Source of the DNA: Malacoraja senta
Lineage: Eukaryota
Assembly (NCBI GenBank): GCA_038087875.1
Contig: CM075990.1
Coordinates: 4,466,001-4,530,000 of the forward strand
Direction: 5' to 3'
Length of the DNA: 64,000 nt
A program made the translations under genes and the position numbers. This document shows, in pieces, positions 31,901 to 37,900 of the stretch. Positions within the stretch are counted from its first letter, which is position 1, and the number at the start of each line of letters is the position of its first letter. The notes below the pieces were generated by a model. The model did no database searches, was not told the origin of the DNA, and saw only the letters and a list, made by a program, of their open reading frames with translations.

Positions 31901-34900
31901 TGCAGATGGAGGCCCCAAAGCCAAGGTCCAGAGGTTTAGGGATGAGATTTGTTGTTATGGTGCCGACAGTTGACCTGTAGTCAATGAATATCATCTTGAC
32001 ATAGGTGTTCATATTGTTACGGTGATCCTGGGCTGAATGTCATGCAGGAGAGCTGGCATCTTCCATTGTCCCATTTTACCTATAGACAAATTGCCTAGAT
32101 TGTGAGGAAAACTGGCAGAAAATTGCCAGTCTTTTGAAGCTCTTCATTATGGTCAATGTTAGTCTACCGGATGATAGACAGGTTATTTTACTTCTGGTAG
32201 ACACAAAATGCTGGAGTAACTCAGCGGGACAGGCAGCATCCCTGGAGAGCAGGAATGGGTGACGTTTCGGGTCGCGATCCTTCTTCAGACACTTTTATTG
32301 TGGACGGGAATGATGGAGATTCCTTGAAGCAGATGAAAACAGTAGACTGTTGAAGTGAGTGGTTGAAGATGTCGGTGAAGACTGTGGCCAGTTGATTAAC
32401 ACAAGATTAGGAACTCCTTCAGGGACTCTGTTCTAACTTGCTGCTTTCCGATAGTTTACCTTTGTGAGAGCAGTTCTGACTTCCACCACCAAGATGTATG
32501 GAACAGAGCTACCAGGGGGATGGGGGAAACATGCTTTGGTGGAACTTTGTTTTCCTGTTCAAAACAGGCATAAACGTCATTGAGCTCATCCAGTGTAGAT
32601 GTGTCTTTGTCATAGATCGCCCCTTATTTTGGCATTCAGCTCATGATGGTGTTTGGGCACTGCCACAGTAGAAAATGCTTGAATTGCAGTCCAAATGCTT
32701 GAATTGAACCTCCAGCTTGTTTTGGAACCCTCTCTTCACATTTTTGATAGCGATAGCCTTGCGGAGATTATACTTCGCCTTATACAGTGCGGGATCCTCC
32801 TTCTTGAAGGCCCTGGATCTACACTTTAGCAAAGAGTGTATTTCCCTGTTGATCCAAGGTTTCTGGTTCGGAGAGACACTCATCGTCTTTGTCGGAATCC
32901 AATTGTCAATGCATTTTTTGATGAAACCAGTGACGACTGAAGTACCCCTATTTCAGGATGGATGAAGTGGTCTGGAACATATTCCAGACCACCGACTTAA
33001 AGTAGACCCTTCAGCATCCTCAAACCTTTGCTGTATTATGCTTTTTAATGGCACTTTGCATTTCAATCTGTCTGTAAGCTGGCAGAAGTAGCTGCAACAG
33101 ATGATCAGACTGGCCTCAATGAGGGCAAGGGACGGAGCGGTCAGCCTACTTTGGTGGTGAGGTGGCAGTGGTCAAGAGTGTTAACACCTTGGGAGGGGAA
33201 GGAGGCATACTGATGGTATTTGGGCTGTGTTTGATTTAAGTCACCGGCGATGATGAATTTTTTCATCAGAGTTTGCATCCTCAAGAGAGATGACATCCAA
33301 GTATAATTTGTCCTTGCTCTGAGCTCCACAAGCTTGTTCTCGAGTGATTGAATGTTAGCTGACAGTATGCTGGGGAGGGGTGGGCTTTCTTTTTCTCTCT
33401 TTCAGCAGTACCTGGAGCCCCCACCTCCCTCCAACACCCACGATGCCTTATCTTCTTATTACTCACGGCTATGCCGGTAGTATCGGATCTAATAAAGATC
33501 AATTTGTAATAAAGAAAGATTTAATAAAAAATCAATTATGCATTGTGGTGTGCAAAAAGCAGATTAATAGCAAAGAATGCTTAATATCAATTATATTTCA
33601 GGTACAAAGGACAGGCAGATAGACGGCGTTACAACCGAGATCTTGAACAGGATGTAGCCTTTATTCCTCCAGGCGAATCACTGAAGGACCTAATTGACCA
33701 GTCGCAGAGCTCGGGTAGTGGTTCTGGTCTCCCTCTGTTGGTAAGAACACTAATTACACAAGTACCGATTGAATCATCTTATAGTTTGAGCTAGATCGCT
33801 CTCCAGGGCATTTGTTGCTTGTTTAAGTGGTCATATTGTCCATGTCAATGAGAAAAACAATCATTAGATTTCCCCAATTTTCACAAAAGCTGGCAAATAC
33901 CCGGCAAATAACATCCAACACATGAACATTCTAATGTGGATCTTTAAGCAGTTATAGTCCTGTCCCACGGTACGAGTTCATTCCAAGAACTCTCCGGAGT
34001 TTAAAAAAAATCAAACTCGTGGTAAGCACGGAGAATGAACGTAGCGGGGACGTCTCTTAGCAGCTCGTAACGCTAATGGCAGGTACTCGGGAAGACTCGC
34101 TAACAGCAGGTAAGCATGGGAAGACTCGTGAAGATTTTTCAACATGTTGAAAAATCTCCACGAGAGCCCCGAGTACCGACGAGTGGCCATTACCGGAAAT
34201 CTCCGAGTTCGAATCAGGGCAAACTCGGGAGAGCTCTTGGAATGAACTCGTACCGTGGGACAGGGCTTTTACAAAAAAATTACTCTATATGGGTCGCAAG
34301 CACTAATTCATGATTCAGAGGTCAAGACAGAAATAATACTGTACTTTCACTCATTTAAGCACAAATCCCAAACTGTTAGTGTGTGGAATTAAAAATGAAT
34401 TAATTATATTTGTTTATTTACTTAGTATAATAGATTTGATTAGCTAAGCAAAACTATTTTAGCTGCCATCCCACCACCTGATTCCAGCAGTGTTTTAGTA
34501 TTTAAATAATGTCACTATTTTTACCTTCACTATATCCCTTAACTCATTCCTACTCTCTGTGTACAGTAAAGGTTCCTGATCTCAGGCTTAAATTTCAACA
34601 TTTGGCAATAAGTTTTATTTTCTTGTTTTACCGTGACAAACTTCTACCTCCTTCTAGCTCTGCATTCACTGTCTCCTTTCAATGCTTAACTTACCTTGCT
34701 CCATATTTTCACTGCTAGTTCATAGTTCTGTGATAGGAAATCAGCTTTGTGATTATCTCCATTATTTGAAACTCAAGTAAAACTCAAAGGTAGACAAAAA
34801 TGCTGGAGAAACGTAGCGGGTGAGGCAGCATCTATGGAGCGAAGGAATAGGTGACGTTTCGGGTTGAGACCCTTCTTCAGTCTGAAGAAGGATCTCGACC

Positions 34901-37900
34901 CCCTAACGTCACCTATTCCTTCGCTCCATAGATGCTGCCTCACCCGCTGAGTTTCTCCGGCATTTTTGTCTACCTTCGATTTTTCCAGTATCTGCAGTTC
35001 TTTCTTAAACATCAAGTAAAACTCAAGTCTTTTCGGAGTGGTAAGTGGGTCACCAACTGCTAAAATACTGAAGAGAGCAGTGAGCTTAAAGTGTAGGGGA
35101 GATGGTATCTCCAGAATGGTGCATATTAGTCATGTTGACATTCAGTCTAAAACAATGTTGGCTTTTAAATTTAAAAAATGCACCGCAGATCTTTTTGTCA
35201 TTGCAGATCCAACAACAATCCTCTGTGTCTGTTATGACAGGAATTTTATATTGATACATTGCACCAGCAATTTGATCAGATTAATGATTTTAAACTTCCA
35301 AACTGGAGTTTCAAGTGCATCAGCATGCTTCTATTCTGGAAGGTATTCCGGCCATTAAAGCACACTGATATGTTTTTAAAATGCTGCCTTTTTTTTTTTG
35401 CTAAAGTGCAGTGGAAAGTACTTAATATATTGGCTCTGGATTTTTTTCCTACAGTGTTCTGGTGCCAATTTGTTAAATACACTCAATATGTTTTGAAGAA
35501 TATTGAGAACAATCCAACATTGCTTTGTCTTGAAACTACGTGGTGAAATAATAATGAAACAACTCCTTAAGTGCCTTAATTGGCTAAACAAAATTATTCA
35601 GACTAATATACTTTTGTCTATTCTGTGAAATATCTATACTTTTGGTGTCGCAAGTTTAAAAAAAAATTAAACAATTTAAAAAAGAAAATAATGATTTCAC
35701 CTTTATGTCATCTTGTAAACAGGTAAGATGTAACATTTGAATAGGAAGGGAAAATATCAACAATTATGAAGTAGTAAAGAGGAATAGAGGGTGTTGTGTC
35801 ACTCTCCTCGCCCCCTCACTTTTCAAACAAGGTTACTTTGTAATGACCCATTCAAGAAATTTTTAAGGCGATAATTTTACCAAAATAAATTTACTAAACT
35901 GTCAAAAGGGACGAGTATTAAAACTGGTAGTCATTATACCAAGAGAATAATTGGCTTGCAGAGTAACAAATCTACAGTTTGAAGAAGGGTCCTGACCCAA
36001 CACATCGCCTATCCATGTTTTATAGAAATGCTACATGACCCACTGAGTTCCCCTGGCACCTTGTGTCTTTTAAAAAATAAACTAACATCTGCAGTTCCTT
36101 GTTTCTACCAGAGGAGGCCATTGAATCCGATAAAATCTATAGATTCAAGAAAATATGCGTTTGTGACATGAGGAGGAATTGTGGAGTAGTTGGGGAATTG
36201 AGGAATTAGGTTTATGACGGGTGCTATCCAGTAACCTATTTGAAAGTAGAAATTGAACATACAACAAACTAGAAATGTGAACTCTTACTGTGCTCTTGTC
36301 AAAAGAATTGAAGGATTGGATATTTTGATTGATGATTGAGTTAAGTCAAGAGCAAACATGTTTCATTGGTTTTCGTTAATAAAGGGTAAAGGTACCAACA
36401 GAAAGAATAATGTAAACTAAATAATTTTTTAGTTGATGGTTGATCTCTTTTCCAAGGAATTTGTGATATGTACATTTCATATTTCAATCCTGTCTCAATT
36501 CTGTTTAGTTTGTAAGAAAAAATACACAGTTCTGTCTAAGATTAAGTGAAGATGTTACAGATCTCTGGGTGCTATTGTTGTTCACCTATTGGAGAATTGA
36601 AAAGCCATTACTTTCATTATTATTTTGACCTCAACTTTTATTACCAACATTGACCTGCATTTTCTCCCTCCCTCCTTACAGGTGCAACGTACGATTGCAA
36701 AGCAGATTCAGATGGTGCGCCTAGTGGGTAAAGGCCGCTATGGTGAGGTGTGGATGGGGAGATGGCGCGGCGAAAAGGTGGCAGTGAAGGTGTTCCCTTC
36801 TGCAGAGGAAGCCAGCTGGTTCCGTGAGACTGAGATCTACCAGACAGTGCTAATGCGACATGAAAGTATTTTAGGTGAGCTGGCCTGACAATCTGATCCA
36901 TATACACTGTATGCAAGATGACTTTAGTGAAGGAAGGATTCTCATGCTACTATTTCCCGGTGTTTGCACTCCATTATTTTAGCCATTCATGGGATGTGGG
37001 TCTCACTGGCATAGCCAGCATTTATTGCACTTTACTAATTGCCTTTGAGATGTTATTAATTGTTATAAATGGAAATTGGGCCATGGCGTTTGTTCTAAAC
37101 TCCTCCCTTCAGCAGAATAGGTCAAGATGCTGCTACCTCTTTATACTTTCTCAGTAGTTAGGAATCCTATTCCTGAGATTTGACGGCTCTGGCCCTGTAC
37201 TCGCTGGATTTTAGAAGGATGAGGAGGGAACTCATTGAAACTTACCGAATAGTGAAAGGCCTGGATATAGTGGATGTGGAGAGGTTGAAAGACAGCCAGT
37301 TTATGGCAGCACGGGAGGATGTTTCCATTAGTGGGAGTGCCTAGGACCAGAGGCCCTAGCCTCAGAATAAAAGGAGACACCTTTAAAAGGAGATGAGGAG
37401 GAATTTCTTTAGTCATTTTGCATCCTGTGTCCCACCCCTCCCTTATGCTGCTATATACTGGCTGTATTTCTTCCTCCCTTGTTCTTGATGCAGTCTTGAC
37501 ACAAAACTCCTACTTACACCTTTTGGCTCCACGGGTGCTACTTGACCTGCTTAGTTCTTCCGGCATTTATATTTTATAAAGGATTCCAACATCTGCCGTC
37601 ACTTTTGTCTTTGGAAAAAAATGAGCTGAATATACTTGGTTATCTTTTTACATCTAATCTATGAAAGCAAAGCTGCTCCTATGCCAGGTTTGACAAATGT
37701 AGGATCAGAGGGGCTGATTTTTCAGCATAATGTTGGGGATCTGATAGGGCCTTTTCCACCCAGATAGTGATAAGTACTTAAGAGTCATAGAGTCATACAG
37801 CATGAAAATAGGCCCATTGGCCCAACTTGCCCATATCGACCAACATGTCCCATCTACACTAGTCCCACCTGCCTATGTTTGGCCCATACTTGGAATGTAC

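Follow-up and report, generated by a model that had tools for sequence, protein, structure and literature searches.

A head-to-head pair of Penelope-like pseudo-LTR segments in a receptor-gene intron of Malacoraja senta, joined at the usual 5' end of its family

The DNA analysed here is a 64,000-nucleotide stretch of the Malacoraja senta genome (GenBank assembly GCA_038087875.1, contig CM075990.1, positions 4,466,001 to 4,530,000 of the forward strand), called the window below and numbered from its first letter. At 34773-35026, in an intron of a TGF-beta/BMP type I receptor gene, lies a 5'-truncated pair of pseudo-LTRs (pLTRs; LTR, long terminal repeat) of a Penelope-like element (PLE), arranged head to head and dead as an insertion. 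Its parts and setting are as follows (TSD, target site duplication).

33742-36681, + strand: host intron with GT/AG ends, a GS-motif exon (PF08515, E 2.8e-11) upstream and kinase exons downstream
34773-34787: left TSD, 15 bp, 11/15 A/T, with an exact copy at 35012-35026
34788-34880, - strand: inverted arm, 93 nt, a tail-minus pLTR segment that starts at the hammerhead core and stops at the tail-minus 3' end
34853-34880, - strand: minimal hammerhead core with CUGAAGA, an extra A, helix II GGGU/ACCC, GAAAC and GUC; helix I absent
34877-34885: junction TCAG-T-CTGA, its central T (34881) being part of the direct arm's sense strand
34882-35011, + strand: direct arm, 130 nt, a tail-plus pLTR segment with a damaged core
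34976-35011, + strand: PLE 'tail', 36 nt, in the direct arm only and common to the tailed copies 28733, 48715, 16381 and 40645
35012-35026: right TSD, an exact copy of the left one

The two copies of the TSD, TCAAGTAAAACTCAA, are identical and directly abut the element. In a scored search for abutting repeats the locus reached 15, and 0/600 random positions exceeded 10. One TSD surrounds both arms and none lies at the junction, which bears out the claim of the initial annotation that the element arrived in a single event. Its dimensions also hold: a 224-nt element between the TSD copies (34788-35011), an inverted arm of about 93 bp, a direct arm and a 15-bp TSD. Similarly, the axis cttcag-T-ctgaag at 34881, its recurrence as CTTCAG-T-CTGA centred on 25392 and the mini-palindrome TCAG-T-CTGA in the unrearranged copy (48710-48718) were each confirmed.

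The arms are identical at 86/93 aligned positions and differ by one indel. The predicted fold of 34788-35011 is a single hairpin (-168.5 kcal/mol, z = -24.6) that leaves the 36 nt at 34976-35011 unpaired. Within 24 nt of the axis (34857-34905) lie four substitutions and the sole indel, or 5/8 of the differences between the arms, and three of these near-axis differences destroy the + strand core; farther out, the arms match perfectly over a stretch of ~45 bp. Decay of the palindrome centre, or conversion between the arms, is a possible source of this clustering. There is no A-to-G excess between the arms (1/7 substitutions, + strand). In a miniature inverted-repeat transposable element or foldback DNA transposon, the terminal inverted repeats reach both ends. 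This identity was considered and rejected, as the final 36 nt have no mirror on the left and the arms also exist as single copies.

The pattern CTGANGA..GAAAC has ten matches in the window against 1.28 expected, and nine of the ten fall in the family to which the element belongs. Cores of this family in the window carry an extra base between 9 and 10.1, the pair G10.1-C11.1 and a palindromic ACGU in place of helix III. The initial annotation had placed two cores back to back, one per strand, with the - strand core intact and GAAA lost from the other. The loss of GAAA stands: in the direct arm GAAAC reads CTAAC, with one inserted C, so that the CUGANGA and GAAA boxes are kept on the - strand and not on the + strand. 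'Intact' is true of the - strand for the core boxes and helix II only. Helix I, which comprises just 2 bp (GU/AC) in the parent, is gone from the inverted arm, where the junction places an A 5' of C3, facing the A that follows the GUC triplet (2.1/1.1), and the helix cannot close. Further, on both strands the cores are paired inside the long hairpin of the predicted fold and not free. A functional twin ribozyme was rejected on these grounds, the + core being without GAAA, the - core without helix I and both buried in a 93-bp hairpin; no arm has a complete hammerhead, and as modelled the 34788 product cannot fold as one. An Rfam scan matched no hammerhead model, its sole match being a sub-threshold MIR2118 hairpin (56 vs 85 bits). 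Every core-bearing arm retains sequence 5' of the cleavage site, which argues that the templates were uncleaved.

BLAST of five arms against the window returned a family of 20 loci, 14 of them single-strand and six with head-to-head arms (14443, 16381, 25294, 34788, 40645 and 42111). The loci on which the argument draws, besides 34788, are listed here, with arm ends counted from the first base of the core.

8441-8532, - strand: non-inverted tail-minus copy starting at the core and flanked by a perfect 12-bp TSD
14443-14748: head-to-head pair, subfamily C, TSD 11/12; left arm to -2 without tail, right arm from ~+10 with tail
14566-14655: nested subfamily-B copy inside the right arm of the subfamily-C pair 14443-14748
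16381-16587: head-to-head pair, subfamily C; tailed arm to -3, short arm from near +2; TSD not above noise
25294-25496: second exact-axis head-to-head pair, subfamily B; no tail on either arm; no TSD found
40645-40855: head-to-head pair, subfamily C; tailed arm to the core, short arm from near +9; TSD 10/11
42111-42243: head-to-head pair, subfamily B; left arm ~+27 to +68 only
48571-48845, + strand: unrearranged copy in a CR1-type long interspersed nuclear element (LINE), with an 8-codon open reading frame (ORF) stub and stop, pyrimidine tract, TCAGT-CTGA, hammerhead core and tail

The proposed origin in PLE pLTRs agrees with the hammerhead core, the one-sided tail and the inverted and direct pLTRs inside one TSD. 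Membership of the family in the PLEs is read from non-coding features, which suggest a derivative of an endonuclease-positive (EN+) PLE: a minimal type I hammerhead pLTR, a one-sided 36-nt tail, an inverted copy in one TSD and partial head-to-tail tandems. The 8-codon stub at 48571-48594 presumably resembles the C-terminus of a PLE endonuclease. Among 24 aligned arms, 3' ends fall at columns 87-106 in 13 and at columns 133-136 in seven, the other four being at columns 42, 65, 70 and 111 (the alignment row 14Rc stops short of its tail). These two 3'-end classes fit the optional 30-40-nt tail of PLEs.

A tree of 23 arms, from which the 29-nt arm 14Ra was left out and for which the four most decayed loci were never aligned, has one well-supported split (98/96), with subfamily A (97/95) inside one half. 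Subfamilies A, B and C comprise 5, 8 and 10 rows, and within them the tree leaves arm pairs unresolved. The two arms at 34788 (34L and 34R) are 92% identical, 34L and 25L 84%, and other subfamily-A copies 88-93%; plain arm identity therefore does not separate the models of origin discussed below. As to the reach of the family, scans of metagenome contigs, prokaryote genomes and viral contigs contained no copies. An axis match in metagenome contig L001 (501-523) was dismissed as a chance match, being a bare 23-bp palindrome without surrounding pLTR. Three local arrangements may be added. Around the nested copy at 14566-14655, ~16 nt of the host arm are duplicated, so the family inserts into its own pLTR. 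Two family fragments ~250 bp apart at 12241-12587 appear to be parts of a single copy that a later insertion pulled apart. Finally, the segment around the 25294 pair (25170-25800) is G+C-rich and differs in sequence on the two sides.

The position of the hinge was the next feature of interest. The initial annotation would have been refuted by breakpoints scattered at random over the genome. In the window they are not random: each of the six inverted loci has an arm whose end lies no more than 3 nt from the first base of the core, and at two of the six the axis is exactly symmetric, with five junction types in all. What did not survive is the view that this hinge is particular to fold-back. Six of the 14 single-strand loci also begin there (within -4..+1 of the core); of the other eight, four extend upstream and four start downstream. 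Further, contigs of four public runs (out of 24 listed; three organisms) were aligned to the unrearranged copy 48571-48845, and their 5' ends pile up at 48709-48713. At 80% likeness, a threshold that favours subfamily A, 41,748-83,184 contigs per run aligned, and the unrearranged copy is multicopy over its full length in the four runs. Summed contig depth, which is not copy number, rises from bin 48701-48710 to bin 48711-48720 by 2.1-, 2.9-, 4.7- and 10.4-fold (4/4 runs). Of 1,143 loose-end rows 24 are listed; the 12 from the 5' side are confined to 48709, 48710, 48712 and 48713, and 5' ends at 48712/48713 are the commonest of those abutting flank. Head-to-tail joints lead from 48835-48845 back to 48709-48713 as 124-126-nt units from core to tail (4/4 runs), and in 4/4 runs they return to 48712/48713. 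Thus, TCAGT-CTGA is the usual 5' end of the family and is not specific to fold-back. The same 124-126-nt units indicate retrozyme-like tandem arrays of the family elsewhere in those genomes.

The A of TCAGT (48712) is the probable first base of the RNA; the motif around it resembles the initiator consensus and overlaps hammerhead helix I. Preceding 48712, the loose letters form long A/T-rich stretches, as unique flank would, but their last letter is G in 4/4 runs; with C as the reference base before 48712, one would expect A or T there, not G. The mixed loose-end consensus before 48710 has an agreement of 0.34-0.36. An extra cap-derived G marks full-length L1 insertions (PMC11702581), and an initiator-like TCACT has been noted in a pLTR of Adineta vaga (PMC3846280). 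The reading of an RNA start is a hint, and an excess of untemplated G 5' of AGTCTGAAG in TSD-flanked monomers would favour a capped start.

Both arms belong to the same subfamily at 6/6 inverted loci (permutation p = 0.0014), which answers, at the level of subfamilies, the question whether arms are closer within a copy or left arms cluster across copies: arms are concordant within the locus. At 34788 the two arms share three states against the fully aligned subfamily-A copies 28733 and 48715, one of these states being also found in the partial copy 59407. At 25294 both arms depart from T at a column where 6/6 other B copies have T. Both arms of a locus therefore come from one source, and the element at 34788 is the product of a single event whose arms share their source and whose ends lie at the positions given above. 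We consider it highly improbable that the pair arose by two independent insertions, or that a twin ribozyme was retained by selection. The family is dense (20 loci/64 kb) and once nested in itself (14566-14655), as independent insertion would allow, but the arms share a single TSD, the junction has none and the two arms match in subfamily at 6/6 loci; the ribozyme version has against it that neither arm has a complete hammerhead and that the near-axis differences destroy the + core.

The same data bear on a palindromic master, which the initial annotation had raised as a family amplifying on its own. As one family it fails: arms group by the subfamily of their locus, not left arms with left arms. 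The two exact-axis loci are from different subfamilies and so cannot both descend from one palindromic master, and a single master was rejected, with inverted loci in three subfamilies, arms concordant within the locus at 6/6 and five junction types at six loci. A less demanding version, in which transcripts of an older head-to-head insertion from the same subfamily were mobilised anew as a non-autonomous element, is unlikely. It would fix both the axis and the end of the short arm, and an opposite-strand, asymmetric joint at 48712/48752 that recurs in 4/4 runs (1, 2, 6 and 4 contigs) implies that some junctions are multi-copy; a further opposite-strand joint, 48656/48698, occurs in one contig. 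However, the master RNA would have to be a hairpin of -163 to -168 kcal/mol. The joint 48712/48752 is in its own right a candidate small family with a fixed inverted junction.

How a single event could place two copies of one source head to head is best accounted for, in our view, by dual priming, the element at 34788 being a non-coding by-product of PLE retrotransposition whose two cDNAs were joined by AG(A/T)CT microhomology; we give this account about an even chance of being right. A PLE protein would nick both strands of an A/T-rich target 15 bp apart, the spacing being that of the observed TSD. One 3' end would be extended from the outer reverse transcription (RT) start site, giving the tail-plus arm, and the other from the inner RT start site, giving the tail-minus arm. 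The template would be RNA of the same source copy with its hammerhead uncleaved, and both cDNAs would run to the usual 5' end, the A of TCAGT (48712 in the unrearranged copy). Each cDNA would then end in ...CTTCAGACT-3', the overlap AGACT/AGACT would form 4/5 pairs and fill-in would yield CTTCAG-(A/T)-CTGAAG; other microhomologies near the same end could give the four asymmetric junctions. The resulting dead insertion would form a 93-bp hairpin in host pre-mRNA. The enzyme, the RNA start and the order of steps are the parts that we infer.

Two observations favour this reading. First, at the 4/4 loci with one tailed arm (34788, 14443, 16381 and 40645) the short arm ends at columns 92-98, in the same region as the tail-minus monomers (columns 87-101). 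Short arms that end at the tail-minus site favour dual priming, since a strand copying itself would need an added endonuclease step to end there. Second, locus 14443 is not nested and lies inside an 11/12 TSD, a product that a single self-copied cDNA cannot give. One TSD surrounds both arms at 34788 (15/15), 14443 (11/12) and 40645 (10/11), and the TSD search found none at the other 3/6 inverted loci in the window. The enzymology has a precedent in the anole, whose PLE protein, a predicted dimer, cleaves both DNA strands and extends each of them, begins RT at two sites separated by the length of the tail and takes uncleaved RNA as template (PMC11167929). A more specific proposal joins these elements: a capped short RNA from TCA+1GT, fused to helix I, a dimeric PLE that primes both target strands from two RT sites, and cDNAs joined at the self-complementary RNA start. 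We put this forward tentatively.

Several points weigh against dual priming and the RNA start that it uses. The two cDNA ends pair weakly (-1.7 kcal/mol, or -7.5 if each reads 2 nt farther). Five of the six inverted loci are nested, the arm that reaches farthest 5' also reaching farthest 3', and the central T goes with the longer arm at both exact-axis loci (at 25294 by a few bases); dual priming predicts neither bias, of nesting or of polarity, except where synthesis of the tailed arm comes first. The end of arm 42111-42151 is remote from the tail-minus site. No ORF for the RT or GIY-YIG endonuclease of a PLE parent appeared in the ORF listing and motif scan of the window. No exact-axis joint occurs among the 15 of 79 joints listed, a result that is uninformative as short-read contigs may break at palindromes. 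As for the RNA start, a splice-acceptor-like pyrimidine tract and CAG lie at 48679-48713, the same spot as the 5' end, and in Penelope of Drosophila virilis an intron ends at helix I (PMC4209133).

Some of these points fit snap-back, the mechanism that the initial annotation had inferred. Here one cDNA, primed at the tail end, extends as far as the T of TCAGT, where a 3-bp stem (TCA/TGA) with a GAC loop lets it fold over and serve as its own template. At the tail boundary the resulting hairpin is then resolved, or becomes joined to the upstream end of the target. This gives the observed axis exactly. Further, the polarity of the central T fits at 2/2 exact-axis loci, 5/6 inverted loci are nested as it predicts, arm 42111-42151 may end off the tail-minus site and the junction 40771/40772 is compatible with a 2-bp fold-back. 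R2 insertions provide a documented case of snap-back following full-length cDNA synthesis (PMC11371274), and self-priming has been proposed for palindromic junctions of PLEs (PMC3846280). However, it needs read-through 2 nt past the commonest flank-abutting 5' ends (48712/48713), and its 3-bp hairpin is unstable, at +0.3 kcal/mol against -7.5 for two such ends pairing together. The short arms at the tail-minus site (4/4) are unexplained without the added endonuclease step, and locus 14443 has A, not T, as its central base and is non-nested. Snap-back is hence possible, if rather improbable, and fits less well than dual priming. Arkhipova et al. (2013) proposed a related model for head-to-head PLE junctions, self-priming on an antisense RNA template, which addresses the same geometry with junction palindromes (PMC3846280). 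It is very unlikely here: the anole PLE, assayed in vitro, takes nicked DNA as primer and sense RNA as template (PMC11167929), and in the present family the 3' ends accord with two start sites on the sense strand and the 5' ends with the start of a sense RNA.

Much of this layout is known. Inverted pLTR segments in PLEs, which the initial annotation took as established, are indeed in print: Arkhipova et al. (2013) described an inverted pLTR adjoining a direct pLTR within one TSD of 9-10 bp, a 31-bp tail on one inverted pLTR in A. vaga and, where the pLTR has its 5' end, 18- and 38-bp palindromes; they regarded self-priming as the best reading of palindromes at the inverted junction (PMC3846280). 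Inverted pLTRs and tails are treated as standard for PLEs (PMC8557442; curation guide PMC8969392), and the origin of the inverted ends is still called undefined (PMC8557442). The 34788 element resembles Pen2a_Av, Pen2_Av and Pen3a_Av of A. vaga in its head-to-head pLTRs in one TSD with a 30-40-nt tail on one arm only, its junction palindrome and its initiator-like pLTR motif (PMC3846280; PMC8557442). It differs in its 15-bp TSD (8-10 bp in A. vaga) and in having no ORF between the arms (PMC3846280), and also in a junction that falls on the hammerhead's first base and recurs in two subfamilies. The layout and the self-priming explanation are thus already published, and what is new is a clue to why the join falls at the usual 5' end.

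L1 twin priming yields two largely non-overlapping parts of one RNA. The arms at 34788, unlike the products of L1 or R2, both copy the same 93 nt, lack poly(A) and imply a different enzyme; shared with those systems are one TSD around a microhomology-joined inversion, snap-back after full-length cDNA and an extra G at the 5' junction (PMC11702581; PMC11371274). Among PLE enzymes, PAc (Poseidon of Anolis carolinensis; Frangieh et al. 2024) offers the closest parallels in a tail from two RT start sites, both strands cut and extended and an uncleaved template; the available portion of that account does not treat inverted products or 5' junctions (PMC11167929). Compared with the minimal hammerhead ribozymes (min-HHRs) of PLE pLTRs described by Cervera and de la Pena, the family has the same core boxes, extra base 9/10.1, G10.1-C11.1 and ACGU for helix III (PMC4209133). 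That work also mentions min-HHR pairs on opposite strands 100-700 bp apart, whereas the cores at 34788 abut, and helix II is 4 bp, not 7-8 (PMC4209133). Helix I has 2 bp in the family parent, as in D. virilis Penelope, and is absent from the 34788 inverted arm (PMC4209133). Similarly, non-LTR retrozymes (Li, Clavereau and Pollet 2026) are short non-coding type I hammerhead units from PLE pLTRs, to which the 124-126-nt head-to-tail joints of this family correspond; the 34788 element differs in being head to head, not tandem, and without two complete hammerheads (bioRxiv 10.64898/2026.07.22.740005).

The receptor gene that hosts the element has + strand exons at 33648-33741, 36682-36855, ~38590-38860, 42411-42575, ~45655 and ~52325. 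The hairpins at 34788, 40645 and 42111 all lie in its introns, on the transcribed strand. Converging on it is a gene with a C1q-domain exon at 57183-57644 (- strand; PF00386, E 2.9e-23), which may, by human synteny, be a multimerin-2-like neighbour. Other repeats include two CR1-type LINEs on the - strand: one at 47566-51508, in which the unrearranged PLE copy sits, and one at 60310-63914, with an endonuclease/RT frame open over 1002 aa and, upstream of it, a frame of GDSL/SGNH esterase type. A Tc1/Sleeping Beauty-type transposase (46344-47376, + strand) is broken into two frames, and a long (TA)/(TG)-type microsatellite at 41120-41650 is the source of spurious microRNA and inverted-repeat matches. 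The receptor gene marks the host as an animal, the CR1-type LINEs and the Tc1 element most probably as a vertebrate, and its repeats may resemble those of cartilaginous fishes.

The object at 34788 is itself a dead retroelement stub in an intron and matters little. The family, by contrast, offers three countable signatures that separate dual priming from snap-back: the polarity of the central base, nestedness and the end of the short arm. Dual priming at the RNA start, if true, would account for tail, inverted pLTR and junction palindrome by a single mechanism, one that could be tested in one assembly thanks to the very large number of copies. Six hairpins of this kind in 64 kb probably mean that introns of the host are a large source of double-stranded RNA.

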